Part shown: in pieces, positions 19,645-64,000 of the stretch
Layout: each line of letters opens with the position of its first letter
How positions within the stretch are numbered: position 1 is the first letter of the stretch
Source of the DNA: Auanema rhodensis
Taxonomy: Eukaryota > Animalia > Nematoda
DNA: 64,000 bases
Assembly (NCBI GenBank): GCA_964057225.1
Contig: OZ059896.1
Location: 12,772,001 to 12,836,000, forward strand
Direction of reading: 5' to 3'
Translations under genes and position numbers: made by a program
Notes under the pieces: model-generated
Seen by the model: the letters and a program-made list of their open reading frames with translations, nothing else
Told to the model about the DNA's origin: nothing
The model's database searches: none

Positions 19645-19676
<32 letters not shown>

Positions 19677-27813: not shown

Positions 27814-27977
27814 AGAAGAGAGGAAAGTTTTAAATCATTTATAAAATTCTATCTCTTAAAATTTTTCTCTTTATCAATAGTTTGTTGAAAAATTTGTTTT
27901 TATTTTTTTTATTTTTCTCTCTTAATTATTATTTGCATATAACAGCTGAGGTCAGCTGACTTGTATCCGTTGGGGCA

Positions 27978-34656: not shown

Positions 34657-35409
34657 ACTGTAATCTGTCTTTAACTTTCTCGAAGTTTGAACTCAGCTGA
34701 TTGTAGTTATCCAAGTTTGGTGCTGTAGTTGTGGTCAATTGAGAAGAATCTTGTTCGATTTTCATCACATAAAAATAAGAGAAAAAATCACACAAATCTC
34801 TTTCCTCATGAGGATGAAATAGTAATAACACAAAACGACATGTTGCCACGAGGAACATGGAAACTAGGTCGCATCATTGAAACAATCACTAGTTCAGATG
34901 GCAACATACGTTCAGCAAAAGTTGCAACAAGCAATGGAAACATAATTATTCGATCCATGAATCAGCTCTATCCACTAGAGATAAGATGCAACACTAACAG
35001 CAACAAAATCATAGAAGACAACTCACACATAGTCTAAGAAAATAATAGCTCAACAGATCAACAGAGAATACCACATACTGATACTGTATTATGCTCAACA
35101 GATCAACAGAGAATACCACATACTGATACTGTATTAGACAATATACTTTCCGATCATCCTATAGAACATACAGATATAAACAATACATGAGAATGAAGAC
35201 ATAAATGATGTTAGCCATAATTACGATATTGCATATGAATCAGATAACTCTCAACATGATAATACATACACTCAGAAACAGAGAATAATGAGGATGCAAC
35301 AAATAATCGACCTCGAAATAAGACAAAACAATCATCAGTAAAAACAGCAAAATATACAGAACAAGATGATGTCACTGAGAAGGAAATTATAAAAGCCTTC
35401 CCAATAAAA

Positions 35410-40469: not shown

Positions 40470-40731
40470 TTAACTTTTGCATTTTGTTTTGGCCGATATA
40501 TGTTTCACAGATTCTCTTTAGTTTTTGTCTGGAACTTTGAGTATTCGAAAATAAATATTTACTACACTAGCAAGCAGAAGAAAACCTTATACTAGTTCAT
40601 TGTTTCTTTAAATTTTAAATTTAATTATTTTTTCACTGTCAAATCGGCAAGCACCTGCTGCACATGTGCGAGCTATTCGAGTGACCGATGCCCAAACGAG
40701 CCACGCTTAGAAAATGAGGCTGACATAACAC

Positions 40732-43700
40732 TATCCACTCCTCTCATAGATGCGCCGGTACAACTCACTGCCCATGGGGCACCGGATGCGATGATATCCG
40801 ACAGGATACTTTCGTAGCCGAACTACATTCAGCTTACGAAAATCCTGGAAGAACCTACTGCACCAGAGCCGGAGGAGGCCTATTCAACAGCTGTGGACTT
40901 CCTATAGAAGGATGCATTTTATTTAGGCCAACTTATCAGCCCGAAAACGAAGAAGTATACGAAGAAATTAAATGCATACAATGGAAACAGGAAGTGCAAG
41001 CAAAATTATTAATCACATACCTCAATAACACTCACCAATACGATATTTTCCTACAACCCTACCGAAAATATGAGTTTCACGGAATTTCATTACAGATTTC
41101 GTCGGTTACAACAAAAGCAACGACGGAACTATACAACAAAATTTTTCTCACATCTGAGACTAAAAGCTACATGATACCGGAACAAATAAAACCAGCGGTA
41201 ATATGCAGCAATGCACGAATCGCAGCAGATAAGTTTAATGCATGCCACATACAAAAGCCTTGCCCATGTTTGGGGGCCGCAGCGCAGCTCTCTTGCAATT
41301 GCGATTCAGCAACACAAAGAGAACTGAAAAAATATAAACTTCCACAAATTAATACAAATTATAGAATCACAAAAGAAGCAGGAACAATAACTGTTTTATC
41401 ACAAATGGAAGAATCAACGCTCACAATGGAAAACCCGCAATTAAGCATCGAAAGCTTATATACTATTTTATATACTATTACATGTGAAACAAAGGACGAA
41501 CTGAATGCCATTCTGAACTGCGACTCCTTTTCTACTACAATACGATGCTCTGACCAAAATCCCGCCACAACGGTCAAACTATATTTCAATGAACCCAAAG
41601 TACAAGAAAACTGTACTCTGACTTGCGGACGAGCAACAAAATAAATTATACAGCTAAGTACCAGACTACACTACATAAGCGACACTACCATTTTTTCAGA
41701 AGAATCGATCAAACTACATGATGGAACATCCGGACTATCATGGAATCTCCCAAATTTGGAACCGCTTTTCGACGTCATCCATGATAATTGGAAATGGATA
41801 GTACCTGCCGTAGCTGCAATCACTGCAGGTTCATACTTATTATACATAGCAGCCCCATTCCTTACATCATTACTTCTTCCTGCTATACTCTCTTATTGCT
41901 GTGTGAGAAACTCAAACCGCAACCCTCGCCCGGCAATGTCGGCGAATGCCTGACTAGAAATGAAATACAATAATTTAACCTAGAAACATAACTCTTCTGA
42001 AACTCTAAACCATTGTCTAATAACCTTGTAATTGTATCATTAACCTCTTGCGCAACATTCTTAAAGGATATTGAACTTTTATCACCTCTATAGTTTACAT
42101 TGACCTGACCTTTGTATTCAAATATCAAATATCACCTTCAAGCTAAATCATATATAAAGCTCAAGAAACCTTCACTATCACTCTTAATTTAATTCTACCA
42201 CTGAACTTATACCGATCTTATAATAAACCTTTCTCATTTAACTAACTGTTTGGATTCGCCACTAACTCATATTATCCCCATTAACCGGGGAACAACCGAG
42301 TATAGACGCTCGTCATTGGGAACATTAAAAACCCAAATTGGTGCAACGACCAAATCAGGTATTAATTGTTAGAAACTTTCTTATCATATTTTTTCCTTTT
42401 TTTTTCATACTTTCCATCTCACTCTTCTTCACATTTTCCTCCTTTCCATCTCGTTCTCTTCATCAAAAAAAAAAATTTTTTTTTATAAACCAACATACTT
42501 TAAACAGTTGAAACTGTTCATTTTGCAATCATTCTACTAAGAAATTCCAAAATAATCCACTTTCGACCCGAAAAAGAAAAAATGGACCGTATCAAAACGG
42601 TTTTTAATACAAAATTCCAAAATTTCGTTCAAACTTTTGAAAAGAGCCTTTTGGAAAACAAACAAAGTGAGGAGCAGTTCTCTCTTTATTCCGACGTTAA
42701 CAACACTCTTGAACAGCTTCGCTTTCACGAATCTAATTTAAACGGACATCGATCCGCAAAATGTTTAACCATACATAATCCTCAACAGAGGAGAGACATA
42801 ATAAAACAAAAAAAACAGGTGCTGGATTTGTTTCAGTCCTACACACACTAGCACTAAGTGTACCTTTGATAAATGTAAAATATGTAATAGAGATCATCAC
42901 CCATCTCTTTGTCTCCCTCCTGCTTCATCAAAATCATCTAATAAAAAAGCAACAATGGGTATCAATTGCTCTATTTCGCAATCAACTCACACTCCACCTT
43001 CGCCCGCATATCTTATGACTTCTAAAGTATCAATTTTTAACCCCCATACAGGTAAGTTCCACACCAAAATATTGTTTTTCGACCCTGGAGCAACTCAAAG
43101 CTTCATTTACGAGCCGGCAGCCAAAGAATGCCAGCTCAAAACTTTAAATTCCGAATTAATCACAGCAACCGGTTTCTCCGGGAGCTATGAGGCATTTAAT
43201 TCTTTAACGGTCGAAGCAAGTTTAAGAACTCCATTTGGAAAAAAATATCATACTTACGCTCCTCACCTCACCCAAACCTCTCACAGGAAAACTAAAGAGC
43301 TGTCAACTTTCTCTAAAAGACAAAGAAGCTCTAGAACAATCTAATATAACCATTACTAACCAATTGGTGGATGGTGAATTATTCATTCCCGATATTTTGC
43401 TGGGTATGGATTGGTGTGATACAATCATACATGATACCAAACCCACTATACTTCCATCGGGATTGAAAGTCAAACATACCCAGATTGGACCCTGTATTTA
43501 CGGTAAGCAAATACCGAACGATAATATCGCAGCCATAAATACACTTATTGTTAACCCTGTGATACCAGAAGACGTTATGATTAAACAACTTTTTGAAATA
43601 GATAACTTAGGAATTTCTCCACACGAAGGAGCCTTGAACCGATCGGAGCTATTCTTCAATGAATATACTTCTCTAATAAAATTCGACAAGGGTTTTGTTA

Positions 43701-44244: not shown

Positions 44245-45103
44245 AAAAAAAACTTCATTTATAATTGAATTATCTCTTTTAATATTGATAGTTGTAATTT
44301 CTTTGAAGGGTGAACATTTAATCATGAATACATCTTTTGAACACTTGATCGGTATCCATGTTTCTTTAGATGACATACAAGAAAACAATGCAGATGCACC
44401 CTGCCCACAGGAATAACATCCGGAGAGACTGATCAATAAAGGACGACAAGGTATATCATAGGAAAATGTATTACTGTCATATAAAAGTTCAGAATCAATT
44501 GAAACTGTAGTTTCATCAGACTGAGTTCGAAAAGTTAAGGATGTATCGGGTTTATAGATTGTTTCCGTATTTGCCATATAGGGAGTAAAATATGAGAAAA
44601 ATGTGTGAAATTATGTTGTGGACATATACAGCCAGCAACATCATTATTGATTTTGTTACAAGTACAATCGATAACCGTTGTACATCTTGAAAAATTGTCG
44701 GAAGTGTCTGCCTTCGAAATACATTGTACCATAAATGGAAAATGTGGTTCAACAGCAAAGATTTGATTGTTTGAAGCAACAAAATAATAATTATGAAGTG
44801 GAGTAGGAGGTTTGTCTTGTGTATTGATCGTCATATTGAAAAAAGAGTAATTCATTTTCAAATATGGTGGAATTGTGATGTTATAAATATTTTTATCTTT
44901 AACAATATGTGTTGTAATTTCAAAAGTTGAAGATGTTGTCCAATCTTCACATTTAAACACTTCAAATATGTCGTCTGAAGTAGGTACATGTTCTAATTTG
45001 TAGAAAAGACAAGGGTTTTCCCAAAATGTCAAACAACACCATATATGTGCTGAAGACCGGACACATTTGGATTGTGTTGTAATATCCTTGATTTGGATAT
45101 TAA
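44245..45103 (-). pseudogene. env: BEL/Pao phlebovirus Gc-like env fragment (H), related to G env
   Basis: PCLFYKLEH..FKC.DW, LSGCYSCGQGA, VFMIKCSP. Confidence 0.82.
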
Positions 45104-45479
45104 TGTTCCATGTTATTGACCCTTAGATTGATGTGTTGTAAAAGAAACAATAAGATTTGAGGAAGAGAGAAAGATTTATTGTAAATAAAAAAACATTTAA
45201 ACAATAAACAAATAAAGATAAAGATAAGTCCGCCAACTGAAGATTCAGTTGAATGGCAAACTTATATAGCGAATGTTATCAGCATTTTCCACGAAAGGTT
45301 ATAAGTTGTCAATGACAATTATAACTATCTCAGAAAATGCTGAGGCTGCAAAATATAACTGATAACATAATACACTAAAACAAGAAACTAGAATTATAAA
45401 ATATAAAATATAAAACACAGAATAAAGAAATACATAAAAATTATAGAAAGAATAAAGTAAAGAATTATAAAGTATAACA
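45104..45479 (-). repeat. 3' LTR of element E (TGTTAT...GGAACA)
   Basis: Ends resemble the family termini; TATATAA and AATAAA on the minus strand. The partner LTR is outside the window. Confidence 0.75.
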
Positions 45480-46366
45480 TGCTACCGCTCTTCAAGTCCT
45501 GTGTCCTCACAGGTATGCATAAGGTTTCCAAAATTTTCATAATGTTGCAGCAAGCTTTTTGATGAGATCCTTATGTACTTTTCTCATCTTTCCTTGACTC
45601 ATTTCCAATTCCACATATGAGTTGTATACGCCTGTAATTTTGAACGGTCCATTATAAGTGGGTCACAATCAGCCGTGAACCGTCATATCCTTCAATAGTA
45701 CCATTTCACCTATTTCAAATGTACGTGATGCTATTCGGTTACTATTATTCAACCGATTTTGTTGTTCAATTGATTTTAATTGAATTTTTTCTTGAATAGA
45801 ATCCCAGGTATTTTTCCGATTTTCATTTCTTTCCAATAATTCGTCATCTTCAGGAGAATTTAGATGAGGTTGTCCTGGTAATTGACGGTCCATAGGTAGT
45901 CGTGCGTCTCTTCCAAAAAGAGCAATGTATGGGCTGATTCCGGTAGTTGTACTTGGGATTGTATTTAATGCGAATGTGATTTTAGGTAATTGTGAGGCCC
46001 ATTGAGAGACACGGTTTTTAGCACAAGTGGATAAACATTCCTGGATGGTTCGATGTGGTCGTTCCACTTGACCATTTGTATTTTTGTGATATGGCAGAGA
46101 GAAGGTTTGTACAATTCCAAATTTGTTGCACATTAACTTGAATTCTTTAGATATAAAATTTCCTCCATTGTCAGACACGATGCTCACTGGTGGTCCAAAA
46201 ATGAAGACGAAATTCGTCAGGAACTTTCGGACTGTTTCTTCGGCATTCTGTGTGCGTTAAGGTATGCTCTTTATCCATTTCGAAAAAGTATCTTGAATAG
46301 AAAGAATATATTTAAATCCATTAGTGCTAGGGGAAAAAGGTCCTGTCACATCCATATGAATCCTAT

Positions 46367-46703
46367 CGTTCCATTCGGAAATCAATACGTAGCAGGCGGG
46401 TTAGAATCAGACGACATGAGGCTGAGAGAGGACGACACGCCCTTCATATGGAACACAGACTTCAGCTTTGCCTTATGGAATGACTATGGATGGTTGGTCT
46501 TCCTTTCTTAGCTCTCTTTCACTTTATATCTTTATGTAGACTTATATAACTTATTGTAATCATGTAGACATAATAAACCTTTCTTTCTCGAGTCTTATGT
46601 TTATCCATTATGCTCTTTATCTACCGCTACATCTGGAATACTATCACACTCATCTTGTAGGCTTTATTGGTCTATAGGATCGACGTGAGAGCATAACGGA
46701 ACG
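46367..46703 (+). repeat. 5' LTR of element D (CGTTCC...GGAACG)
   Basis: No differences seen versus 57494-57830. Confidence 0.97.
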
Positions 46704-46722
46704 TGGAGGTTCCACCTCGAAC
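46704..46722 (+). promoter_or_regulatory. PBS of element D (tRNA-Gln)
   Basis: TGGAGGTTCCACC-TCGAAC directly after the LTR. Confidence 0.9.
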
Positions 46723-48113
46723 ATTTTTATCTTGATTTCTTGACTATTTTCTCTTATATTTCTTTATTTTCAATACAATTCATTGAATCTGAATTCTCTT
46801 ATATCTCTAAACCATCTACTCCATGTCTTAACACAATACGGTGGGGCCAACAACGTTTAAAAGGGAACAGATGCAAGGACCACTCCTTTTGGAGATGGAT
46901 ATTTTATATTTTTTGAAACTGAAGTTACGTTTTCCCGTTTGTTCACAATTTTCTGTCTGTCTGAACCCAACAATTTTTATATCCTTGCTGTTAACATCGA
47001 ATACTCTGTTACCCGAACTCGAAGCATTTTTGAGGACCCTAGGATGAATTAGTGAACAAATTCACCCAAGGATAATTTTTTTTTGAGATTTATGCCCACA
47101 CTTTCTTCTTTTAAGGATTGATTTTGGCTTCGAGGAAAGAATAGCCACGGTTATTTCTTTGTTTTTGTGGATGAAACAATTTTGCGCACCAAATTGAGAT
47201 TATTTCATATTTTGCGATCAGGACTATTTTATTTTGCGTTACATTTCTGTTCAGACAACTTTTTGCCATTAACATCCAAAAATATTTTGATAACACATTG
47301 AATTTGCACGGGAAACCTCACCTAAATGGGAGGAATATTATGAAAAGTGAATTTTAAGATCGCTATAGTCCGAAAAATCCTGTACAATTTTACGAACTGA
47401 ATTATTATTAGTGATTGTCTATCAGGTCGTGTTGGCTTAAGCATATCAGTTTGGATTTTCTCCCCTTACTATATGTCACCTTCCTCATACCGTTATTGTT
47501 GTTTTGAAGCATAAGACTCATTCCTAAACACCATAATTCTTTAAATATAGTTATTGTAATCTTTAGTCATCTATTCCTAGCCATAATTTTAAAACTAGAT
47601 TTCTGATCATGATGGGACTACGGTACTCATTCGTTTTCCAAATTGCTTCCTTAAAGAGTAATGCTATTACGAATGTACATTATGAAAACCGCTAAAATCC
47701 TTTGAACATTTACCAAAGTCCATTTTCGTGGCATTTTCGATCACTCGTGAGTCCAAAAAGATCAGAATCGTCAGAAAAAGAAAAAAAAATGGGAATAAGG
47801 ACTAATGAGATTGCTCAGGCATCAATCAAGTGAGCACTGAACATTTTTGAACATATACAAACTGGTTGAATTATATACATTTAAGAATATTAAATTGGGA
47901 AGCGAACAAAGTCCAAATTTTCATACGGTAGTAGGCGGATCTCTGTTGATGGCCACAACTTAGATTCATTCCTCAACGCCGTTATACAAACCAGTTACTC
48001 ACAGCTTTCTCACCCCTTTTCCAAAACTCCTTATCCATAACATTCATTAACGTCTCAAAATCCCCCACGTTACTAAACACTCAAGGTTTTTCCAAACCAA
48101 GAGCGCTACCAAA

Positions 48114-51100
48114 GTGGATAAGCGATTCCGATCAGCTGTACCTCTCAGTACACGAACTGATTTTGATCTGCGAGACTCAGCTCCACTCACCAGAAGCCGA
48201 GCTCGCGCACAAAGCATCGCTATAATCGAAGACGAGCAGAAAGCCGAGCACAAAACCGACAAATTCTTTACTCCTCGTGCAGGCACTTATTCACCTACTG
48301 AACGATTAAGCGACGAGGATTGCGTACCACCAGGAGGAGAAGAAACATCCGTCATAGTGGAAGAACAAACACCAGTTACTGCTAAAAAGGTACGCTCCTC
48401 TACTTCAAATAAAAAGAAGAAAAAAAAAAATAAAAACTCAAGCAAATCGGACGCATCTCTCTCTCTGTCCATCCCTGAACCAACAGTTTCACCTTCAGTA
48501 GCCACTACTAGTGCAGGCGGTTTACAAACTTTTAAAAACATAGTTTCTGATCTCTTCAATCGTTCACCAAAAGATCGAAACTTGAACACCAGCCACACGA
48601 ACAGATACTCGTCGGTTCCAAACATTAATTTATCTCCCATACAACCACCCGAACATACACATCTTGCTATTACTGATAACCAAACTTCAACCCCAATTTT
48701 ACCAAATACAACAACAGGAAGTTCAAAAGCACCAAACCAACCCAGCCGCTCAGTACACACAACCCCTGTATCTGAGAACTCATTAACAACAGGCAGAGTG
48801 ATAAAAATGCCATCTGCCCGTACAAGTAATATGGCAACTGAACCCTCTTTACCTGGGGCAGGGAAAACTACCATAGCGCAAGCCTTGTTATCACCCTACT
48901 GCCCAACTTATGATGGCAGTCGCAACTTTCGAGATTTCACGGCTAAATTCAACCTATTTGCCAACGCTGTAGGTCTGGTAATCCCGGAGAGATTAGCCCT
49001 TCTACCTTTGCTTCTTAAAAACGAAGCAGCGGAAGAAGCGTACAGGCAAGTACCTGAACAATTAAAAACCACCGGTTCATGGAATGACCTGTTAAGAGCT
49101 TTAACATCTAAGCTTTGTCCTGAATATAATCAGGATCCAGCGCTGATCAATCTCCAAAATACAACCCAAGGTGATCTGACAATTGACGCTTACGCTCAAT
49201 CACTGAGAACGATTGCACTAAGCGCTTTTTCCACGGATGACCCTCACAAAGATCACATATTAAGATCAACTTTTCTTAGAGGACTGAAAAATACTCTGAA
49301 ACCAGCTGTGATTCGAGCGAAGCCAAAATCCTTCACGGATGCGATTGAGGCCGCTCGCTGGGAAGAATCGGTAATGAACCAGACAACAGACACGCAGTCC
49401 ATGCTAGTCAATGCTGTAAACAAAGCACTAGCTCCTTTCGCGCGCACAAACGAGAGACGAGATAACCGAAATTTCGACCGTAATTATCCACGTGATAACC
49501 AAAACAATAAAAATTATCATAATTATCAAAATTATCAGAAAAATAAAAACTTTTCAAAATATAATAACAACCAAAATCGTAACGGCTCTTTTGCTAATTA
49601 TCGCCGTAACAATAATTATGAACGAAATTCGGGACGATTTAATAACAACTGGCATTCAAACAATTTTAATCCTTCAAACAATAATAGAAGAGGAAGGACT
49701 AATGAACATAACGGACAAAGAAGAGTCCATTTTAACAATCAAAGAGATCAATCAAGAGGACGAGATAGAAGCACACCACGAATTAACTCTGTGACCCTTT
49801 CACCGTTATCACTAACGGTTGTAATGGCAATCACAGTAGCAATTCTCCTGCCATGTGTAACTTCATATCAAATTTGCACAAAAGCAACTGGAGGAGCCTT
49901 ATTAGTTCCACCAGTAGTAAAGAAATGTAAATTAACAGAAACAAATCATGTGCTACGTACACAAATCCATCTATACACGCGAAACCACACGGCACACGAG
50001 TGGGACGCGTGGCGCTGCTCGAAGGAAGTACACAAGCTGTGTGTACGCGATTTGTTATTCCTCCGCGACACAAACAGAACAATCGATAGGGTGCAGCCTA
50101 TAGCGGCGCACGAGTGCAGGCAGGCGATTCGCGATCGCAAATGGAATAACATGGAGCTGGAGAGAATCGATAGTATAGCACAAGCAACCCCAGAGCCCTC
50201 CTATGATCCGGCGCGCGCGTTTAGCCGCGACGAGTGCGAGGAGAGGCCGCGTTTAGTACTAGAGCGCGGAGTCATGACCCGCATGCCCGATGATACAATA
50301 TTATCCAATTTAATACTAAACACTGAAGGTTGTAGTGCTCATCATGGTAATTGCAAATCAAATACATCAATAATTATATGGGATCCCCAAACATCGGATT
50401 CCCGTTGTAATTATATCGATATGCATTACTACGATGCTATAATAAGCAAAGAAACCATTTTGATTCCAAGTACACAATCAGCGCTTATCCTTTCGAGTAA
50501 AATAACACCAAAACCAATTGCATCCTGCTTTAGACAACCAGCATTCCATACAACATCAGGAAATTATATAACGTTCCCCAAATATCCTAATGATAACAAT
50601 ATCACACTCCTAATTGAACGAGAATTTGAGAAATTGCCGTTCAAAAGACCTAAACGCGCAACTTCTACAAAATGCTCATTCCCATTCGATCAGGATAGAA
50701 TAAATGAAGTTGAAGATTTTGAAACGTACACGCTTCGAATTTGCCCATATCCATTTTTAAGACCACTTATGAGTAATCCAGGAATTACACAAATTATTCC
50801 TCTAATTAAAGGAAGACGTATGGTAGACCCTACATATTCCTTGAAAGAATGGATAATAGCCCATCGTGAAAATTTTGAATTTTTCTTTAAAATTCAAATT
50901 TATGAGAAATCTTTAAGACATTTTCTCAAACAATATGATTTCCGTGATAAAGACGAAGCCATTTTACAATATGTTGCTCAAAGAGAATTAGCTTTAGCTA
51001 CTAAAGCTGGAATATCTTATTTAACATCCAGGCAACTTCTTCAACAAATATCAGATCGTTTGACCGTTATTGAATTTGATCGGTTAATTCGTACAAAAGA

Positions 51101-54100
51101 AGGCACTTATCGAGAGCGTGCTGAAACTATTGCTCTTGATTTAGCCAATACACCAGTTATAATTGAAGACAAATTAACAGTTCCATCAAGACAAGAAATA
51201 TTAAAAGCATTCGTAAAAATGCCACCAATAAGGAAACAATTATTAACTGATCAAGAAGAAAGAAACAGTAAATTTATAAAAGATACAATTGACCTTGTAC
51301 ATGAGCTAAAAACTCTCGTTACGCTTAGAAGAAATAAAACAGCAGCTGATATTGATAACATAAAATTTATAAACCTTCCATCTTCACGAATGTTTGTACT
51401 TGATACTGATAAATTGTTCTATGACATCAAGAATAATTTTGGAATACCAATTGGACCACATCCCAAGCTCATAGAGCCCAACAACATCTCTAAGGACTTA
51501 TTATTGGAAATATTTTTACCACTACTAAACGATAATACTTTGCCTAATACATCTAGTAGAATATCATCAGAACAGTTAAAAAGATTAATGACAGAGAAAA
51601 TCCAACTTAAATCGTTGCAAACCACGACGCGTGCGCCAAGCAACGCGGCAGGCGGCGCGGCCGAGATGGCAGCCCTCTCTATAATCGATCGTGAGGCGCT
51701 GATCACAACAGATCCCGCAATACTGCCGCAAACATCTACAAGCCCTCGGGCAGCCGCAGCAACTACCGCGCGCGCGCCTTCATCGATGGCCCAGCCCGAA
51801 ACAACGGCGCGCCATACAACCGCAACGACAACCGCGCGCGCAACAATATCGACCCGCGCGCCGCCAACTACTATTCTCTACGCTGTTTATCAAGATCAAC
51901 AAATTCCAATAATGGAAGAAACAACATATACACCAATATCCTTGATTCGTAAACATAGAGCATCATCAACACCTACAGCCACCGATATAGAGTCTGTACA
52001 GGCTAATGCTCAATACATTGCCACAAAAATTGACTCCGAACAACAGTTTCGCCAAAACATAACAAGCAGAATTGCACAAGATCATTTGCAATATGCTACA
52101 ACTATGATTCAAGAAGAACTGCAGAAACATTTTAAAGAGTCATACGAATCAATATGTGAGATCCAAAATAGGTATCTTGAATTATGGAGATCAATTTTAC
52201 AAATTGAACCAACAATAGCTATGCGTACAATACTGGGAAGAGAAGATATAGCCGCAAGATTTGTAGGCAGCGAGATATTACATATACATGTTTGCCCGGT
52301 AGTATTACAAAAGACTATATATCACAATCACACCGTGAATGGCACATGTTATCTCGAAACCCCAGTATTAACACAAGAAGGACAATTACTGTTTGCCGCA
52401 CCAGGATCGAAAGACCTATTACCTCATGGTAAAGAAATTAACTGTGATCACGTACCAACAGACGTATGGTCAACAGACGGTGAATGGAAAGGAATTAATG
52501 GTACTGTAGACGTCAGTCTCATATCCATGTGGGACGGACTTCATCATGAAAAGATCACACCATTAAAATTCACCGGAGCACACTTATACACCAACTTATC
52601 ATCTCGAGTGTACTCAATGACAACAGCCATTGCTTATGGTGCTAGTTTAGCATCGATTCGTCAAAATCACGTGCTTCACACAATTCATCATGATCCAAAA
52701 ATATCATCAGCATTCAGCATATTGAAGAAAAGTAGTGATTACATCTCCAAAGCCAATGAATTCACCAAAAGTACATGGAATTCTTTTGTCGATACAATAG
52801 CAGGAACGATTGAACGAACACTCATCACTATTGGAGCAATTACAATTATTGTAGTTATACTGATCGTACTAGCCTTTGTTGCGAAAATATATTTCTTCAA
52901 ACCAATAGGCATGCAAGTTATGCATATCGAACTCCGAGATCAAACCAACGATCTTCCCACATATGAAGAAACATTAGAGCTAGTAAGTCAACCTGATCAG
53001 CCAATACCAAGGAACATAATGAAACAGTACTATCCATCGTTTCTCACTTTAGTTCCACTAGCTATGCCCATAGTATGTTCAGTTTCCAATCGCAAAGACC
53101 AATCTCTACCACTGCTATTGATGACTGTTAACGATAGACTAATCCTAACTCTTTGGGATTCAGGATCATCGATTAGTTATATCAGACTCTCGACATTACA
53201 TTACTTAACTTTGAATGATTTTGTAAAAAAGGATAAATCAGTTGCAACGACAGCAAACGGATCAGCATTTCGATTTCTGGGAACAATTGATTTAACCGTA
53301 GAAATCGCTGGATATGAAATAGATCATACATTCTTCATTTCAAGAGATGAAGACTGTCCATCACCAGCATTAATTGGATTAGATTTTATGAAAACACTCG
53401 ATCGTCAAAATATCGGTATGAAACTTCGACCATTCAAACAAACGTTAGAAATCGGAAACCGCGTAGTACCGTTAGCCAATGGAAATAACGGGAATATCAG
53501 AAAAACATCATTTGTCATTAATTTGATAAATTTAAGTCCACAATGTATCTTTCCTCATCAGACCTGTAGAATACCAGTAAGGTTAGCTGAACCCATATCA
53601 CACAACGAAGTCGCCATGCTACAACCCGATGAAGAAAAGACGATATCTACCACCTACGAAACAGCATTTCGAGACGTCAATTCAATTACCATGACATTCA
53701 AAAACAACACTGATCATCCTATAGATCTATCACCCGGAAACATTATTGACAAAGCAAAAATAGGCGTACTGCCACAATACGAGATCTTTACGACCGAACA
53801 CAATCCAGACTATATACCACCCGAAGCGGATTGGGAAAATAAATTACCTCATTTTCCTCAGGATTTTATGAACGATCTTGATTTAAAAGACGCCGACCTA
53901 ACTAAAGAACAAAAAGATCTTCTTCAGCTTTGTATTCTACGTAATAGAGATGCATTTTTAAATGAGGATAAACAAATAGGACTATTTAAAGGACCTGTAG
54001 AGCATTCAATACCTCTAAGAACAGATATGGACATGCCTAGACCGCGTATAACGCGTATCCCTATAGGCAAACAAGAAGAAGTCGAAAGACAGGTACAGGA

Positions 54101-56798
54101 GATGCTGAAGCAAAATATAATTGAACCATCCACATCTCTTTTCAATAGCCCTGTAGTTTTAGTCAAAAAGAAAGATGAAACATTCCGTTTCGTAACCGAT
54201 TTCCGTGCTCTAAATAACGTCACTCGCAAGCAAACGTACATCATACCTAACATCTCTGACATTGTCGATATGGCAGCCGGATCACAATATTTTTCTAACT
54301 TTGATTTAGTATCCGGATTCTTCCAAATAGCATTAAAGAAATCAGATCGACCATTAACAGCATTTACAACAAACACCGGTACTTATCAATATAGAAGGAT
54401 GCCTATGGGGTTATGTGGAGCGCCACATACCTTTCAAACAGCAGTACGATACCTTCAAAGCCGATGTAAATGCCGACTCTTTGTTTATTTGGATGATTTA
54501 CTCGTTATATCAGACACTGCAGAACAACATCTTGACGATATAGCTGAGATTCTCAGAGAAGTAAAGAAATTAGGCATGAAAATAAAACTCAAGAAATGCG
54601 CTTTTGCAAGACCTGAAGTAAAATTTCTTGGTTTAATTGTCGGAAGAGATGGGGTCAAACCAGATCCACAGAAAGTATCCGCCATTCAAGACTATCCTGC
54701 TCCAAAGTCACCTACAGGAGTAAGAGCATTTTTGGGAATGGTAGGATTCTTTCGGAAATTTATTAAGGATTTTGCACACATCGCAAGCCCTTTATACGAC
54801 CTTACAAAACTTGATGTGGAATTTCAATGGAATGACAGAAGTCAACAAGCTGTTGATACACTAAAAAGAAAATTGATCCAAGCACCGGTCTTAAAACCAC
54901 CAAGATCAGACCGTATGTTCATTATAGAAAGTGACGGTAGTAATATCGCAGTGGGAGCAGTGTTATTACAACCTGAAGATCCCAATGAACCACTCAAAAA
55001 TTTACATCCAATTGCATTTGCAAGCCGTAAACTTGTAAAAGCAGAACGTAACTATGCTCCTATTGAAATAGAAGCGTTAGGACTCGTATACGCTTTAGCT
55101 CAGTTTCGAACATATATACTTGGATCACATACAATCTGTATCACAGACCATCGACCATTAACAAGCTTATTGACTCGTAGAGACCTTTTTGGAAGACTAG
55201 CAAAATTTCAATTAGTCATACAGGAATACGATATCGAGATAAGATACCGAGAAGGCAGACTAAACAAAGTCTGTGATGCTCTCTCACGATACATTGGAGA
55301 TGAAGCAAACGATCCTAAACCGGAAAAGAAAAAGAAAACAAAAGAAATTCCGAAAGCTCAAATTAATTTCGTTAATGTACCTGACATTAGAGCAATTCAA
55401 GAGGATACACCTTGGATAAAGAGAACTATCGCCGAAATAGAATACAGAACGAAAAAGAACATGCTTTCTAATGATCGTTATTGTGTTATTGACAACATGT
55501 TATACACAAAACCAAGCAGAAAACGACCACACCCAGCTTTGATTTTACCAAGGGAAAGCGAACTTATCAACAAGGTTATCGAAGAATTTCACGAAGACCC
55601 AGCAATTGGAGCACATCAAGGAATTAACAAAACTAAAGAAGCCATACTACGAAGATTCTGCTGGACAAATATGCAAACGGACATAGCAATTTTTGTGAAA
55701 CAATGCGTTAAATGCGCACAAAGGAAGAAAGATCCTCACGCTATGACCGTTCAGCCTATGGGTCAATTTGAAATACCATCAAAACCATTTGAGAGAATAC
55801 ATATGGATATTATGGGACCATTCCCTACTTCAAAAAGAAACAACAATTATGTCCTAACAATACAAGATTCATTCTCCAAATGGGCGACAACCATCGCTAT
55901 ACCAACAATTGTCACCGATGTCATCATTGATAGATTCCTCAGGAATTTCGTATATATTTTTGGACCACCAAATCGTTTAATAACCGATCGTGGATCTAAT
56001 TTTGTATCAAAGAAATTTGAAGAAATGTGTGAAAAACTTGGCATTAAACACGAGCCAACACTCCCACATCAGAAAAACTCCAATGGACAAGTCGAAAGAC
56101 TACACAGAACGCTAGAAGAAGGATTAACACACTATCTCAACGAAGACGTAACTGATTGGGACATGTATTTACCAAAAATTACTTTTGCGTTAAATACAAT
56201 AACACACGCAACCACAGGAATCTCTCCATACATAGCATTATTCGGAAAAGAAAGTCGTATGAGATTAGACAAAGAATTATTCCCCGAGACATTACAACCA
56301 GAGATCTTGGAAGAAATTGAGAATACCGAATATATCAGAGGAGAAAGAAGAACCATCATTCAAGAAAATCTTGCAAAACATCAAGAAACCGCGAAGAGAA
56401 AACATGATGGACGACAACGAATAGAAGAAAGAGATATCCGAAAAGGAGACCAAGTTATGTTAGCAATTAAAGCGCATAAACCAGGTCAAAAGCTTCGCAA
56501 ATCATATGATGGACCATTTGAAGTCATCAACGTTGAAGGAAACATGGTACAACTCAAGAATCCATTTGGAAAAATTCAAGACGTACACAAAGACAATCTC
56601 AAACTTTTTGAACGCAAAATGGACCATACAATCGCTCAAAACACGCGATCCAATACAACGACTTATGACACGGACGACGACAGCGATATTGAGATCATAA
56701 AAGTCATAAATGGTAACGATAACTATGACTCTACTGAAGAAACAGAACCAGAAGACCCATCGGACCAAAATTGGCTACCACCAAGAAGAAGACGATGA
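48114..56798 (+). CDS. Single polyprotein Gag-signal-Env(gB-like)-TM-PR-RT-RNaseH-IN; true start codon unknown
   Basis: Capsid-like region; signal 49806-49865; KRPKR at 50643; gB-like core 52077-52457; TM 52821-52883; LWDSG at 53151; YLDD at 54486; HHCC/DDE; GPF. Confidence 0.95.
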   Translation: MDKRFRSAVPLSTRTDFDLRDSAPLTRSRARAQSIAIIEDEQKAEHKTDKFFTPRAGTYSPTERLSDEDCVPPGGEETSVIVEEQTPVTAKKVRSSTSNKKKKKKNKNSSKSDASLSLSIPEPTVSPSVATTSAGGLQTFKNIVSDLFNRSPKDRNLNTSHTNRYSSVPNINLSPIQPPEHTHLAITDNQTSTPILPNTTTGSSKAPNQPSRSVHTTPVSENSLTTGRVIKMPSARTSNMATEPSLPGAGKTTIAQALLSPYCPTYDGSRNFRDFTAKFNLFANAVGLVIPERLALLPLLLKNEAAEEAYRQVPEQLKTTGSWNDLLRALTSKLCPEYNQDPALINLQNTTQGDLTIDAYAQSLRTIALSAFSTDDPHKDHILRSTFLRGLKNTLKPAVIRAKPKSFTDAIEAARWEESVMNQTTDTQSMLVNAVNKALAPFARTNERRDNRNFDRNYPRDNQNNKNYHNYQNYQKNKNFSKYNNNQNRNGSFANYRRNNNYERNSGRFNNNWHSNNFNPSNNNRRGRTNEHNGQRRVHFNNQRDQSRGRDRSTPRINSVTLSPLSLTVVMAITVAILLPCVTSYQICTKATGGALLVPPVVKKCKLTETNHVLRTQIHLYTRNHTAHEWDAWRCSKEVHKLCVRDLLFLRDTNRTIDRVQPIAAHECRQAIRDRKWNNMELERIDSIAQATPEPSYDPARAFSRDECEERPRLVLERGVMTRMPDDTILSNLILNTEGCSAHHGNCKSNTSIIIWDPQTSDSRCNYIDMHYYDAIISKETILIPSTQSALILSSKITPKPIASCFRQPAFHTTSGNYITFPKYPNDNNITLLIEREFEKLPFKRPKRATSTKCSFPFDQDRINEVEDFETYTLRICPYPFLRPLMSNPGITQIIPLIKGRRMVDPTYSLKEWIIAHRENFEFFFKIQIYEKSLRHFLKQYDFRDKDEAILQYVAQRELALATKAGISYLTSRQLLQQISDRLTVIEFDRLIRTKEGTYRERAETIALDLANTPVIIEDKLTVPSRQEILKAFVKMPPIRKQLLTDQEERNSKFIKDTIDLVHELKTLVTLRRNKTAADIDNIKFINLPSSRMFVLDTDKLFYDIKNNFGIPIGPHPKLIEPNNISKDLLLEIFLPLLNDNTLPNTSSRISSEQLKRLMTEKIQLKSLQTTTRAPSNAAGGAAEMAALSIIDREALITTDPAILPQTSTSPRAAAATTARAPSSMAQPETTARHTTATTTARATISTRAPPTTILYAVYQDQQIPIMEETTYTPISLIRKHRASSTPTATDIESVQANAQYIATKIDSEQQFRQNITSRIAQDHLQYATTMIQEELQKHFKESYESICEIQNRYLELWRSILQIEPTIAMRTILGREDIAARFVGSEILHIHVCPVVLQKTIYHNHTVNGTCYLETPVLTQEGQLLFAAPGSKDLLPHGKEINCDHVPTDVWSTDGEWKGINGTVDVSLISMWDGLHHEKITPLKFTGAHLYTNLSSRVYSMTTAIAYGASLASIRQNHVLHTIHHDPKISSAFSILKKSSDYISKANEFTKSTWNSFVDTIAGTIERTLITIGAITIIVVILIVLAFVAKIYFFKPIGMQVMHIELRDQTNDLPTYEETLELVSQPDQPIPRNIMKQYYPSFLTLVPLAMPIVCSVSNRKDQSLPLLLMTVNDRLILTLWDSGSSISYIRLSTLHYLTLNDFVKKDKSVATTANGSAFRFLGTIDLTVEIAGYEIDHTFFISRDEDCPSPALIGLDFMKTLDRQNIGMKLRPFKQTLEIGNRVVPLANGNNGNIRKTSFVINLINLSPQCIFPHQTCRIPVRLAEPISHNEVAMLQPDEEKTISTTYETAFRDVNSITMTFKNNTDHPIDLSPGNIIDKAKIGVLPQYEIFTTEHNPDYIPPEADWENKLPHFPQDFMNDLDLKDADLTKEQKDLLQLCILRNRDAFLNEDKQIGLFKGPVEHSIPLRTDMDMPRPRITRIPIGKQEEVERQVQEMLKQNIIEPSTSLFNSPVVLVKKKDETFRFVTDFRALNNVTRKQTYIIPNISDIVDMAAGSQYFSNFDLVSGFFQIALKKSDRPLTAFTTNTGTYQYRRMPMGLCGAPHTFQTAVRYLQSRCKCRLFVYLDDLLVISDTAEQHLDDIAEILREVKKLGMKIKLKKCAFARPEVKFLGLIVGRDGVKPDPQKVSAIQDYPAPKSPTGVRAFLGMVGFFRKFIKDFAHIASPLYDLTKLDVEFQWNDRSQQAVDTLKRKLIQAPVLKPPRSDRMFIIESDGSNIAVGAVLLQPEDPNEPLKNLHPIAFASRKLVKAERNYAPIEIEALGLVYALAQFRTYILGSHTICITDHRPLTSLLTRRDLFGRLAKFQLVIQEYDIEIRYREGRLNKVCDALSRYIGDEANDPKPEKKKKTKEIPKAQINFVNVPDIRAIQEDTPWIKRTIAEIEYRTKKNMLSNDRYCVIDNMLYTKPSRKRPHPALILPRESELINKVIEEFHEDPAIGAHQGINKTKEAILRRFCWTNMQTDIAIFVKQCVKCAQRKKDPHAMTVQPMGQFEIPSKPFERIHMDIMGPFPTSKRNNNYVLTIQDSFSKWATTIAIPTIVTDVIIDRFLRNFVYIFGPPNRLITDRGSNFVSKKFEEMCEKLGIKHEPTLPHQKNSNGQVERLHRTLEEGLTHYLNEDVTDWDMYLPKITFALNTITHATTGISPYIALFGKESRMRLDKELFPETLQPEILEEIENTEYIRGERRTIIQENLAKHQETAKRKHDGRQRIEERDIRKGDQVMLAIKAHKPGQKLRKSYDGPFEVINVEGNMVQLKNPFGKIQDVHKDNLKLFERKMDHTIAQNTRSNTTTYDTDDDSDIEIIKVINGNDNYDSTEETEPEDPSDQNWLPPRRRR

Positions 56799-57493
56799 AA
56801 GAAATAATTTCGAGATTGATAAAATTATTGTAAAACCTTGTATCAACTCTCTTTTAAAAAACCAGAGCTATTCATATTATTATATCATTGAAAAACTTGA
56901 GTAAGACGAGATGTAAGCTAATAATCAAAAAGCATTTCAGTTTCAAAGCATATATAATTATAAAACTTCATCAATTTCAAATAATTTCCCGTAAATAACG
57001 AAGAAATGAAAGATAAGAGACATTATATTGCATATTCATCTGAGCAACAGTCCTTATCAAGTAGTTAATGATTCAATTCCGGAAATTATATGGGATTTAG
57101 TTTAATTTTTTTTATTATTACAATTCGCTTTGAATACGCTGAAGAAACATGCTAGCTCCATCGATAATATAGCATGACTCTCGTTTCTCTATACTCAAAC
57201 AAGTTAGACATGAAGCGTCGTGCCTAAAAAGCTATTTTGCGCACTCTCGCTGACAAAATATAGCCTTGGTATTCTAAAAGATTGTTTTATTACTTAATAT
57301 TCATGTATTTTCAAATAATTTTTATTGAATTCTTTTCAGATACTATTGTTTAACATTATATTGTAATTTATCTTTACTATTTTTATGTTAACATTGTAAT
57401 TTTTATTTTTAAAACTAAACCTTCTGCTACGATTGAAACAAGCCACATATTTTGCTATTCGCGGGGACGCGACATAAACTCGAAAAAATGGCA

Positions 57494-57830
57494 CGTTCCA
57501 TTCGGAAATCAATACGTAGCAGGCGGGTTAGAATCAGACGACATGAGGCTGAGAGAGGACGACACGCCCTTCATATGGAACACAGACTTCAGCTTTGCCT
57601 TATGGAATGACTATGGATGGTTGGTCTTCCTTTCTTAGCTCTCTTTCACTTTATATCTTTATGTAGACTTATATAACTTATTGTAATCATGTAGACATAA
57701 TAAACCTTTCTTTCTCGAGTCTTATGTTTATCCATTATGCTCTTTATCTACCGCTACATCTGGAATACTATCACACTCATCTTGTAGGCTTTATTGGTCT
57801 ATAGGATCGACGTGAGAGCATAACGGAACG
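57494..57830 (+). repeat. 3' LTR of element D
   Basis: Identical to the 5' LTR; preceded by GAAAAAATGGCA. Confidence 0.97.
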
Positions 57831-60800
57831 CTATCAAATAGTTTTTGTGGGGTAACAAACTTTCCATATGGTTCTCTCGTTGTATCATGTTGATTTATTT
57901 TCCTTTTTGCGCATGTCAGGCATTGGCTGACGATCTCTTTCGCATCTTCCATCATATTTGTCCAATGGAATCTTCTTGATAATGCTGCATGTGTTCTTTT
58001 GATTCCTTGATGCGCTCCAATTCTTGCGTCTTCATGAAAAAGTTTCACAAGTACTTGATTCAATGTCTTTTGTTTTAGAATCATAATCCTTGGAGTAAGA
58101 TATTGTTTGTTAGGTCGAGCATGCAAAACTCCGTCGATAACAATATATCTATCGCTATTAATCTGTTTAGGTTGTTCCGTTAACATATCAGCAATAGTTT
58201 CCTTAATCCATGGTGTTCCTTGTTGTAACTGAATTAGTTTGTCGGTATCCAGAATTTCCACATTGGTTACATTTATGAGATAGTTGATAGTTTCTTGGAT
58301 ATCCGTTAAACTTGTTGTTGGCGTTGTCTTCTGTAGCTTCGGTTTAGGACCATCGTTAGCTTCGTTGCCTATGTATCTGGATAGTGCATCACATACACTA
58401 TTCATACGTCCTGGACGGTACATAATCACAATATCATATTCCTGAATCATTAACTGATGTTTCGCTAGTCTTCCAATAAGATCTCTTCTACTCATTAGAC
58501 TGGTTAGTGGTCGATGATCCGTTATTAGCTTAGTTGACGTGCCTAAAACATATGTGCGAAATTGTTGTAATGCGTAGACGAGTGCCAAAGCTTCTAATTC
58601 GATAGGTGGGTATTTTCTTTCTGTAGGTGAGAGCTTCCTACTTGCGAACGCAACAGGGTGTAATCCATTGCCTGTGTCTTGTAGTAAGACTGCTCCAATT
58701 GCAATAGTACTAGCGTCACTTTCAATAACAAAAGGTGCTCCATTTGTTGGTGGCTTCAGAACTGGTGCTGTGCATAGAGCTTTCTTGAGAGTCTCGAATG
58801 CTTTTTCACGTTCTTCCGTCCATTCGAAATCTTGATCCTTGTGTGTGAGTTGATACAACGGTTCGGCTATTTTGGCGTAGTCTCTGATGAATCGCCGAAA
58901 ATAATTTGTCATTCCAAGGAATGAACGAATAGCGGTGACCGTTTTAGGAGTTGGAAATTTCTTAACGGCTGTAATTTTTGATGGATCAGGTTGTATTCCA
59001 TCACGACCAATTATAAATCCAAGAAATTTAACTTGTATAGCTGCAAATTTGCATTTACTTAGTTTTGCTTTCATTCCTAATCCTTGTAAAGCTTGTAACA
59101 CTTCTTCTATATCCTCCAGATGTTGTTCGGCTGTGTTTGATATAATGAGTAGGTCATCCAGATAAACAAAAAGTCGACATTTTACTTGATTTTGCAAATA
59201 GCGAACAGCTGATTGAAATGTATGTGGAGCTCCACAGAGACCCATCGGGATTCTGCAATATTGATAAACTCCTGATGAGGTCACAAATGCAGTGAGGTGA
59301 CGGTCTTCTTCACGTAAAGGAATTTGAAAAAATCCCGATACGAGATCGATGTTTGTGAAGTATCGAGCTCCTGCAGTGCTGTCGATTATTTCTGGTATAT
59401 GAGGAATAGAATAAGTCTGTTTCTGTGTGACACTATTGAGTGTACGGAAGTCCGTTACAAAGCGGAATGAGTTGTCTTTCTTCTTGACTAAGACGACTGG
59501 ACTTGTAAAACTTGATATTGATGTTTCTATTACTCCTTGGTCCAGCATTTCTTTTACTTGACGTTCAACTTCATCCTGTTTACCCAAAGGAACTCGATAT
59601 GATCGAGATTTGGGCAGGTCCATATCGGTTCTCAAAGTGATTGAATGTTCTATTGGTCCTTTGAATAATCCAATGTTCCGATCTTCGTTAAAAAAAGCAT
59701 TTTTGAATCTTCTCAACATAGTTTTGAGATTTTGACGTTGATTTTTAGATAGATCCGTTGATTCGAATTTTAAGTTATCGAAAGGATTCTTCTCAAAAAT
59801 AGGCAATTTATCTGACCAATCAGCTTCTGATGGAATATAGTCCGGTATATGTGGGATTCCCATTTCTTCTGCTATTTTTCCTTTTCCAATAATAGTGTTT
59901 CCTGTTAACTTCACCTTATAATTTGCTGTATTGATGGCAAATATTGTGAGTGGTGAAGTCTTGATAGCAGTAGGTGTGAATTGAATAGGTCCATTTCCAC
60001 ATCGTATAAGAGCGTATTGTTTTGGTTGTAGTTCTTTTGCCAATTGTAGACGAATCATAGCTTTAGTTCGGGGTGGAATAATAGATTCTCTAATGTTTAT
60101 AATGGACACGGTGTCTGAACTGATGCGAAAGCTCTTTTGGTTAGCGGATAATAATGGTAGAAAATGGTTTCCAACTATTAATTGCTTGCGTAAAGCTTGT
60201 AGAGAAGTTGTTATTCCTTTTTCTTCTAATGCTTTCATGATGTCCAAACCAAGTAACATTTCAGTAGGACAATGTTTATCCTCAGAGATTAAAAATGTGT
60301 GTGAAAGATGGTATCCAGCAATAACAATGTCCAACGTTATTGTACCCAGAAAGTTGAATATTGATCCATTTGCTGCGGTAGCAGAGATTTTAGTTGAGTT
60401 GAAATTCTCTTTTCTTAAATAGCGTACTGATGATTCCTTCAAATATGAAACAGATGCTCCGCTATCCCATAAAGCTACGAGTCTTCTGCCTTCTGCTTCA
60501 ATTCTTATATATGGGAGTTCTCTTTTGTTCGTTGCACAGCATCCAACAAAAGGTATAATAATAGGAATAAAAGTGATGACAGTAGGAAAATATCTTCGAA
60601 TAGTTTCGTCGTCGGCTGGAACATTGATGTCAGCGTTGAGTAGTTCGTGTTGTTCAACTGCATTCACATTTAAGATAGGAACTTTCTCTTTGATATAAGA
60701 TACAACAATAATGTATAATGCTGATCCAAAGATTAATATAACTATCATAACACCTGCAGAGATAAACATTCTGTTGAGGGATCCAACAAAGAAATCAACT

Positions 60801-60886
60801 CCTCGTTCCCATAGTGATGATGCAATATTTTGAGTAGAACTAAAAAGTTCGTTACTTTTTGTAAACCATTCGGATAAGCCTGGCAA
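57831..60886 (-). pseudogene. pol: Env TM, protease, RT, RNase H and integrase N-terminus of element E
   Basis: TM ISAGVMIVILIFGSALYIIVV is in frame with LWDSGASVSY, YLDD, ESDAS and CLTC. Confidence 0.92.
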
Positions 60887-60949
60887 ATTCGCTTGATTCG
60901 TGATAACTCGTAGAAAATTTCTATGAGGATTGGTAGCGAAAATGTGTCC

Positions 60950-63010
60950 TTATGTTAGGCTTATTGTTCTAACTAAGTTTTCATCGGTGATATTTTCATA
61001 AAGATTTCTTTGTGAAAATCGAATGGCTGCTAGATCGGGATACTGATCTGAACCAATGTTTAAAGCAGTTACGTTTGTAACTCCGTTGAGGGATTTCCAT
61101 TCTCCATCCTCTTTCCATATATCATTTTCTACTGTTTCACATGGAATTTCAGTTCTATATGCTTCCAAATCTGCTGAATCTTGAGGTGCAAAGTAGAGGC
61201 GGTCATCATCCGTGATGACGGGTGTTTCTAAATAACACTTATCTTTGTATGTGTGGTTGCGATAAATGTGAATTGGTTCTATTGGCTGACAGGTTGAAAC
61301 CCGAATAAGATTCCGCCCAATTATTCGAGCCACTATATCATCTTGTTGCATAATAGATCTGATAGCAATTGTAGGATTGATATTAAATATAGCTTGCCAT
61401 GTCTTAATAAGTTCAAGTTGAGCATGACATATGCTGTGATGTTGATGATGAAATTCTTCGACCAGTATGGTTCTCATTCGTTCAAATCCATAGTTGAGTT
61501 TGTTGATGGTAGTTAATGCATCTCGATGTCGAAGTATAGTGTTCTGGTGATCAGTTAAGTGAGTGCCGAATAATTCTTGAGCTTTCTCTTTGCTTCCAAT
61601 CATGGGTTGCATTGATGTCATCCCTTGAATAGTACTAATTGTTTGTTTTGTAGTAGATGATGTATTTACAACAGGTTTTGAGGTAGCACTAAGAAATCGT
61701 GCAGTTGGCGTAGTTTTAGTGGTGATAGAGCGACTGAATACTCTTTTTGTAATCTCTTCAGGTGCTGGTTTTGAAAACCATGACATTAAATCAGTTAATT
61801 GTTTAGCGTCAATATTGATGTTACGGCTGTAGAGATCTTCTTTATTCGAAAGCATCGGTATTCCAAAAATGGTTTCTCGGCTTCTGAGTGTCAAGTTATC
61901 CAACAGCTTTAATTTCATTGCATATACTTGATCTTTCACTTGTCGTTGCATAAAATGACTATGAAAGAACAGTTTCATTCGATAATATTCTATCAGTTGA
62001 GGTTGAGAATACTGATAGCGTAGTTCACGAAGTAATTCTTTTGCTTTATATACCACAGAACGTGGATCTCCAAATGTGAAGTTGAGATAGTTTTGATATA
62101 CTGTGAATATCAAAAATTCGAGTGGTGGCACATATTCTGTTTCGGATAAGATTGCAGGTATTTGTATCAATTCCCATAATTTATCTCTTGCAACCAAAAT
62201 TGTAGAATTGCCTGGTTTAACTATTCTTTTTATATAATTGATAGGAAGTCGGTGTGCTAGTTGACCGATGACAAAACTAGGCTCCATTTGTTCGATCCAC
62301 ATTTTTGTAATCATCTTGCTTTCTTCTCCTCCTAGAGCATGTAGTAAGAGAATATTCGGATCGCGGAAGTCTTTTAAATTTGCCCAGTAATCTATAGTGT
62401 GCTTGGGGTGTGGGTGTTTTCCAAACTACTGAACCATCTCCAAATGTACAGCTTCCCATTTGAGCTTTACAGCCTTCTGCGTTGACAATTAAGTCAGATA
62501 CAATAGTATTGTCCTTTAAATTTGTAATAACTCCTCGCTCCATCACAAATTGAGTTAAGTTGGCGCATTAAGTAAAACTGAAGAAACGTTCCGGTTCATA
62601 TACTGGCTTAGGAGCTTCATATGTAAGTGGATTAGCGCTCAACAGTTTTTCATTTTTCCATTTCTTGTCTCGAGCAGCTATACGGCATTCTTCTACAGAT
62701 ACATATCCATTACCAATGATGGTGTCGTTGTTTTCTCGGAACCAAAATTGATCCGTTACACATAATCGATAGATGCGTGTATAACACTTCCACGCTTCCC
62801 ATGTTACGACGGTTTGTTTAGGAATGAACAATTCAACGTTAACTTGATGAGCTTGTTGAATTGCTTTCCGTTGGCATCCTGTTATCTCTGGTGGTGTCAT
62901 CAGAAATCCTCCTTTATGAGCTAAACATAGTTGATATGAAGCATTCACAGTGGGAAGCAGAAATGTGCAGATTATTGTTGTGAGCAGGAATGGTAATGCA
63001 ATAGTATTTA
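60950..63010 (-). pseudogene. env: gB-like env of element E
   Basis: ASYQLC, WEAWKC..FWF..EC, KLNY..ICHAQLELIKTW..NPTIAIR..STC..CYLETPV. Confidence 0.82.
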
Positions 63011-64000
63011 TATTGAATCGAGGTTTCCATCGTCTTTGATTGCCTTGATTCTCTTTTGGATAATTGTCGCGATTATTCCTAGAAAAGTTGTCTCGATTTT
63101 CTCTTTGATAATTGTTGCGAGTTTCTCTCTCGAATGATGATGACTCTCCATTGAGTAGTTGTTTCCATAATTTTGTCGAGGGCCAGAGTTCCTGCTGAAT
63201 TTATTTTTGAAATTCCTCCAAGGGTTTCTTGAATTGTTGCCATTGTTCCGTTCGAAATCTCGTGGCTGCTGATGGTTTTACTGCAGAAATCAACTCTTGC
63301 ATAGTTGAGTTTTCTTCATGCTGTTTCTTATAGTTAGCACGAATTGCTTCTTCAAAACGTGCTGTCCTTTTTGCTTCCTCAAAAGTCTTCGGATCTTTTC
63401 CTTGAACAATTATGCCTAAATCAGCGTTCAATCCATTTAAGAAAGCTGATCTTAATATGAGCTCTCTTTCTCGATCAGTTGGGCTCATAATACTGGAAGC
63501 CATTTCTTCCAAGTATGAGGCAAACTGAGTAACAGTTTTCTCTCCTTGCGTCGAGCGTAGCAACTTCGCGATCGTGAAATTCCTTTCCGTGGCAGGGCAA
63601 AGTAACTCTGCCAATTGTGAAACAAGGTCTTTCCAAGGCCCTCGTTCACGAATTTCGGAAGGAATCGAGTTATATGCAGAGATCGCAGAATCATTCTGCT
63701 GAAGCAGCAGAGGAAGAATCGTATTTGGGGCAGTGTGGACTGCCTAGAACTTTTGTTAAGGTTTTGGTCAACTCTGGAGATGCCATTAAATTAGGCGTTT
63801 CCAGAGTTGAATCTCTGTTTGATTGCTCATGTGGTCTCATGTTGAGTAGGAGCTTCAGAGGTAGTTTTTCGCGCTGGGGAGTTTTTTCTTCTTTCGGTGT
63901 TACAGCCAAGTGTGTTGGCGTTTTTTCGTCGTCCAATGGACTTAAATCGTTGTCAAACGAGTCGTCACTATCGGGAAAAGGAAATCGAGAAATACGATTT
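63011..64000 (-). pseudogene. gag: Gag of element E (partial, frameshifted)
   Basis: SPHCPKYD, ILRSAFLNGL, ARFEE. Confidence 0.8.

Follow-up and report, generated by a model that had tools for sequence, protein, structure and literature searches.

A 64,000-nucleotide stretch of the genome of the nematode Auanema rhodensis (assembly GCA_964057225.1, contig OZ059896.1, positions 12,772,001 to 12,836,000 of the forward strand; hereafter the window) holds nested retroelements, interspersed with seven tRNA-Gln genes and a 5S gene. Three of these retroelements, D, A and B, are read here as tRNA-Gln-primed gag-env-pol elements of the Ty3/gypsy type whose long terminal repeats (LTRs) end in CG-3', beside a CA-ended relative, E. 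Judged from the sequences, their integrase probably joins the terminal G, accepting C-purine rather than only CA. Such joining had been proposed in a preliminary description of this DNA and is supported here: both LTRs encode the terminal G, and precise insertions flanked by 4-bp duplications have it at their junction. The CG-ended LTRs are real and well fixed; the kind of element is known, and its terminal motif was not found in print.

Terminal Bases of D and Its Relatives

Element D is a Ty3/gypsy element on the plus strand (46367-57830) with one gag-env-pol frame. Its junctions read CTAT|CGTTCC...GGAACG|CTAT, as first described, with the target-site duplication (TSD) CTAT at 46363-46366 and 57831-57834. 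CG stands at all four termini of the 5' LTR (46367-46703) and the 3' LTR (57494-57830), which are identical at 337/337 positions. An empty allele was found in three of four runs, from three studies, with the joint 46362>57831. Five letters at this joint fit either side, and the D site alone leaves the left C ambiguous: the C and the G could be target DNA, belonging to a 5-bp CTATC duplication. This is highly improbable, and for the G end it is refuted. The G stands ahead of the primer-binding site (PBS) and recurs at four different right flanks, namely those of D (CTAT), B (AGTT), an LTR at 9456-9883 (CATG; hereafter the 9456 copy) and a further D-family junction seen in the public runs X11 and X2 and also in X11, X14, X6 and X4. 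The chance of a G adjoining the LTR at four independent right junctions is about 0.001, a rough figure based on the mean C/G frequency of the window. The terminal G is element DNA.

The left C is fixed in A by empty paralogs at 14364 and 32939, which differ at the junction base and lack the terminal base of the element. In D, the C is also present in the 3' LTR after the purine tract, and other insertions begin there, at 57494, and stop at 57830. Contigs that depart from the reference immediately ahead of 57494 number at least four in X6 and at least six in X4, with 20 of 151 loose-end rows examined in one run comparison and 24 of 1032 in the other. With a flank agreement of 0.64 in X6 and 0.63 in X4, the flanks before this position differ, and neither of the two flank consensuses ends in GCA. 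Two empty paralogs of B carry a single AGTT (9260-9263 and 33037-33040), which makes its duplication 4 bp. The empty sites bore out the earlier caution that D alone is ambiguous and B is not, and, in line with the check proposed there, the further copies and empty sites place the C of A and D, and the G of D, B and the 9456 copy, outside the target DNA. Duplications of 4 bp, first stated for the elements in general, are seen outright for B and, in combination with other insertions, for D; A, the 9456 copy and E each show one LTR. The flanks of the further D insertions had no paralog in the window (0 matches; in a second search, 21 against 20.8 expected), and no 2-LTR circle joint was among the joints listed from these contigs, which drop rare forms. 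No RNA data set was among those listed as containing this DNA.

That the elements were inserted with TG...CA ends and mutated to CG later is scarcely credible. The LTRs of B do carry nine differences (410/419 identical), one of them near the end, but the identical LTRs of D, with CG at each terminus, refute this course, and the same G recurs in A and B, in the 9456 copy and in contigs from other runs. CpG depletion was tried separately as an explanation and rejected, with observed/expected ratios of 0.87 in the window and 0.96 in the D LTR.

The 5' LTR of A (8744-9109, minus strand) has the ends CGTTCC...GGAACG ascribed to it before, which form a 9-bp terminal inverted repeat; its PBS adjoins the LTR at 8743-8731, and the element is truncated, without a 3' LTR. 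The internally rearranged B (14518-28396, plus strand; LTRs 14518-14936 and 27978-28396) begins TGTTAC, ends in CG and is flanked by AGTT as described, with the correction that its 5' LTR ends GGGACG, not GGAACG. The 9456 copy, on the minus strand, is the 3' LTR of a second B-family insertion. It does share the ends TGTTAC...GGAACG, and two empty paralogs of its flank lie in the window (28571 and 33120); as a single LTR it does not reveal a TSD of its own. The ends TGTTAT...GGAACA attributed to E were read in one single-copy 3' LTR (45104-45479, minus strand), whose right, CA end (45104) is placed by register with the conserved GGAAC in the absence of an empty site. At the joined ends, D and A have CG on both sides, and B has CA at U3 and CG at U5.

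Three end types coexist in the window, and the graded series of the preliminary description stands as a description. An evolutionary order from E through B to D is not supported: in the integrase tree, E and D form a group that leaves B outside (89/83). The gag, env and reverse transcriptase (RT) trees gave no resolution of B versus E. In RT-RNase H, D is 69% identical to B versus 65% to E, with a tree that leaves the order of B and E unsettled, and in gag D is closer to E (37%) than to B (28%). D and A are sisters (gag 71%, env 81%), with LTRs that align at 245 identities, 80 mismatches and 53 gaps. CG at U5 may have had two origins, or a reversion or mutation may have changed E. Among named proteins, the integrases closest to that of D come from Auanema sp. 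JU1783 (55-71% identity), followed by Caenorhabditis auriculariae and Heterorhabditis, and the D integrase groups with proteins of these three (100/97).

Proposed Formation of the Joined Ends

As noted in the preliminary description, the PBS abuts the LTR in all three 5' LTRs of the window (D, A and B), and GCA precedes the 3' LTR in 4/4 cases (D, B, the 9456 copy and E, of which B and the 9456 copy are one family). A zero gap also occurs in Caenorhabditis relatives and is thus clade-wide, not tied to CG. On the joined strand, TG follows the terminus at 3/3 U5/PBS borders and at 4/4 borders of U3 with the purine tract, and the subterminal C is kept at all ends compared. At U5, reverse transcription would start on the base adjoining the PBS, i.e., the terminal G, and clean primer removal would leave a blunt G-3'OH end that needs no trimming, as in Ty1. 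The skipping of U5 processing suggested earlier is plausible in the light of this analysis and would not be peculiar to CG ends. At U3, a cut in the purine tract after GG would keep the conserved CA as a spacer, and the integrase would trim TG-3' from the joined strand. Two-base spacers after retroviral purine tracts offer a model for such a cut. An RNA hairpin across U5 and the PBS that constrains the end was considered as well and rejected (z -0.56, 0.07 and -0.09).

The G end could also be real and nevertheless processed at U5, if RNase H left the last tRNA base, the plus strand gained a T and the integrase trimmed this T or a longer PBS overhang. Retroviruses retain one primer ribonucleotide in this manner, the proviral junction would be the same for a blunt or a trimmed end, and U5 and U3 alike have TG after the terminus. 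Trimming at U5 is unlikely all the same, for the zero gap is the Ty1 arrangement, in which processing is unneeded, and no T is present at the four right junctions.

On the joined strand, AATGGAACG stands at the U3 ends of D and A and at the U5 ends of A and B, and ATGTAACA at the U3 end of B. In D and A, U3 would have become like the motif of U5. This agreement suggests an attachment site about 9 bp long that counts for more than its final base, which may be either purine. A candidate for what would make the base change tolerable lies in the integrase of D (55557-56600, plus strand), which has the HHCC and D,D(35)E motifs and whose best solved relative is the Ty3 integrase (7q5b, E-value 2.3e-25). 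In its active-site loop, Lys-Asn (56073-56078) replaces the Pro-Gln wedge found at the aligned position in the solved structures of foamy virus (Pro214-Gln215) and Ty3. According to the available text of PMC8487063, PMC6784120 and PMC3395085, foamy virus Pro214-Gly218 separates the strands and stacks on adenine. In a survey of 187 proteins, 183 of which aligned over the loop with the catalytic Glu, the wedge position was Pro in 146/183 and Lys in 9/183, all of the latter in the D clade. The residue seven positions after the catalytic Glu was rejected as a determinant, as it varies freely (Lys in 37/174 distant matches).

A more far-reaching version, possible but doubtful, is that a rhabditid clade of env-bearing Ty3/gypsy elements has rewired its end recognition, with the Lys-Asn loop, a site of about 9 bp of the form AATGGAAC-purine, a preference of D and A for G, and trimming at U3 only. 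Several observations weigh against the interpretation given here. The CA-ended E also has Lys-Asn, and the loop does not track CG; 28/183 integrases outside the Lys group are also without Pro; and the predicted integrase model has a predicted local distance difference test (pLDDT) score below 50 at residues 170-177, i.e., at the loop. From these alignments, the loop would be at most permissive. As for the junctions, others elsewhere could be hidden among the remaining loose-end rows, the left and right flanks from the runs are unlinked to any one insertion, and two long contigs, starting at the C or one base earlier, have 12 differences from D over about 130 bases and could be a sister subfamily.

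There may also have been no adaptation at all. CG would then be a weaker substrate tolerated by a lax integrase, or the integrase of a relative would move the elements, and the ends would simply have drifted. The presence of the same loop in E fits this course, as does the success of B with mixed ends; in the available text on lotus, elements are mixed on the integrase tree regardless of their ends. Drift is nonetheless rather improbable. CG is found at both ends of D and A despite widely different LTRs, and their U3 ends match the U5 motif over nine bases. Moreover, D, which carries its own uninterrupted integrase between identical LTRs, is a young element whose family has several insertions. 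The joining of G by an integrase that accepts C-purine is the probable explanation.

Organization of D and of the Surrounding Nest

The single open frame of D (48051-56798, plus strand; 2915 amino acids (aa) from stop to stop, first ATG at 48807) encodes, in order, gag (aa 322-413), a glycoprotein B (gB)-like env (aa 1343-1605), protease (aa 1691-1781), RT, RNase H and integrase. Between gag and protease, 52086-52865 (plus strand) matches a class III (gB/Monjiviricetes-like) fusion protein; PF24664 matches above its cut-off (E-value 6.8e-13, 47.9 bits, cut-off 27), and PF00606 (E-value 2.5e-8, 34.1 bits) is under its cut-off of 43. A 13-nt PBS, complementary to the tRNA-Gln genes of the window, follows the 5' LTR with zero gap (46704-46716), and a second block, TCGAAC, comes directly after it (46717-46722). 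A weak purine tract ending GG-CA precedes the 3' LTR (57480-57493). Such a split PBS is common to D (46704-46722) and A (8743-8723), with 13 bases of the tRNA-Gln 3' end, five absent bases and a block after the gap that resembles the T-loop complement; B keeps a continuous 18-nt match to tRNA-Gln.

Internal deletions derived from D occur in other runs, with the joints 48386>56521, 48386>56536 and 48388>56611 (48386-56645 region), and a 1746-bp X2 contig links 48385 to 56645. GT..AG ends are given for two of the deletion joints and would be compatible with copies of a spliced RNA. The LTRs and untranslated parts of D have a greater contig depth than its frame, a ratio that is not a copy number.

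D is inserted inside the integrase gene of E, whose broken gag, env and pol pieces lie at 57835-63798 (minus strand); the integrase match is split by D and resumes below 46362. The 3' LTR of E adjoins an env fragment resembling the phlebovirus G2 protein. Three frames of this phlebovirus-G2-like type (35263-37482, 40724-41644 and 44535-45122) bring two unrelated envelope types into one nest. Within B (20663-24026), a protease/RT start is duplicated (21663-21945 versus 23744-24026, 98.9%) and flanks a more distant env-protease piece, which suggests recombination between relatives. A 529-bp tandem repeat related to the tRNA-Gln repeat unit occupies 1-1747, at the point where A breaks off, and a non-LTR element with endonuclease and RT lies at 29389-31826 (minus strand).

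A (9110), B (14514-14517) and the 9456 copy (9452-9455) are three independent insertions into copies of one 5S spacer, situated, by paralog, about 59, 210 and 385 bp upstream of the 5S start. These positions could reflect targeting linked to RNA polymerase III (Pol III) or only a local pile-up; D and E lie in other retroelements. A family of the BEL/Pao type, with a TG start, has LTRs at 14291, just after base 14 of a 5S gene, and at 12982-12988, upstream of a tRNA-Gln gene by about 5 bp. Both positions hint at insertion close to where Pol III starts. A short segment resembling the 5' part of 5S is repeated in the spacer (33075-33130, 28526-28582 and 9410-9455); the copy at 33075 is followed by a run of T, and the 9456 copy is inserted near the start of such a segment.

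Significance

According to the available parts of the literature, the terminal CA used by retroviral integrases is invariant. A young Ty3/gypsy family in which G is probably joined, found in an animal beside CA-ended and mixed-ended relatives, offers a test of the contribution of the last base, and the finding also points to one specific integrase loop. If end recognition was indeed rewired, nearly identical relatives that carry CA/CA, CA/CG and CG/CG ends within one genome would form a natural series for studying why CA does not otherwise vary in retroviruses. The finding is less surprising in view of published exceptions to the CA rule: the CA-3' requirement from which the preliminary description started was overstated, with non-CA ends documented in Drosophila errantiviruses, plants and diatoms. 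For genome annotation, motif-enforced LTR searches would drop or mis-trim such elements in nematode genomes. The earlier warning about LTR finders holds for runs of this kind; LTR_retriever, as far as its available description goes, tries TG..CA first and then seven non-canonical motifs, all said to start with T.

Comparison with Known Systems

A literature search, which reached few subscription journals, found no publication on LTRs with CG...CG or TG...CG ends. A metagenome scan found no relatives of D with intact LTR ends, its 2 loci being at 35% identity. In viral contigs, the LTR-end/PBS pattern had 0 matches, and the one locus found, a distant one, was at 28%; in prokaryote genomes none of 120 loci with this pattern had a tblastn match to the D polyprotein.

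Diatom CoDi copia elements include three of 26 families without TG/CA (available text of PMC2806351), and they differ from D as copia elements with no env. Among plants, non-TGCA elements such as Tos17 and TARE1 have been described (10.1101/137141, PMC5659011 and PMC9804982), and AA...CA ends occur in Rosaceae. As reported in the available text of these sources, such elements resemble D and B in being transposition-competent with altered termini, and asymmetric ends like those of B occur. Unlike D, they are mostly copia, and in copia elements of lotus the first base is T throughout and the last A or T. The ends of D, A and B lie outside this plant class, in which the last base is A or T and the first nearly always T, and no C start or G end appears in the available portions of the plant accounts.

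With regard to end processing, Ty1 integrates blunt, unprocessed ends and needs CA under physiological metal, and prototype foamy virus processes one end only (available text of PMC8487063, PMC6784120 and PMC3395085). Both differ from D in joining CA, and foamy virus, with trimming at U5 but not at U3, does the opposite of what is proposed here for D.

The Drosophila errantiviruses gypsy, ZAM and Idefix have AGT...AnT ends (available text of PMC5408687 and PMC3601003), which none of D, A and B shares. Like them, D is an env-bearing Ty3/gypsy element that breaks the CA rule and keeps inverted ends. As far as these sources go, they differ from D in the joined base, which is T, in an unrelated motif, in an F-type env placed after pol, and in Lys or Ser primers.

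The closest counterparts are the nematode GAG-ENV-POL errantiviruses of the Ty3/gypsy type, in the family Metaviridae, with an env of the herpes simplex virus gB type (PMC13524379, available text). Like them, D has short direct LTRs, a tRNA-Gln PBS at the edge of the 5' LTR, the order protease-RT-RNase H-integrase, and a class III, gB-type env between gag and pol. Judged by these traits of its sequence, D belongs to this known group. In supplementary file 1 of that study, published in eLife in 2026, as far as available, a PBS is called in 16 of the 36 Nematoda rows, the Gln primer occurs in Caenorhabditis members, and in 8/8 Gln-primed elements the PBS lies at 0 or -1 from the BLAST-defined LTR end. 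The table lists neither terminal bases nor TSDs, and the available text is silent on termini, so that its elements may or may not include CG-ended ones; with these elements D shares its gene order, its envelope type and a primer site set directly against the LTR.

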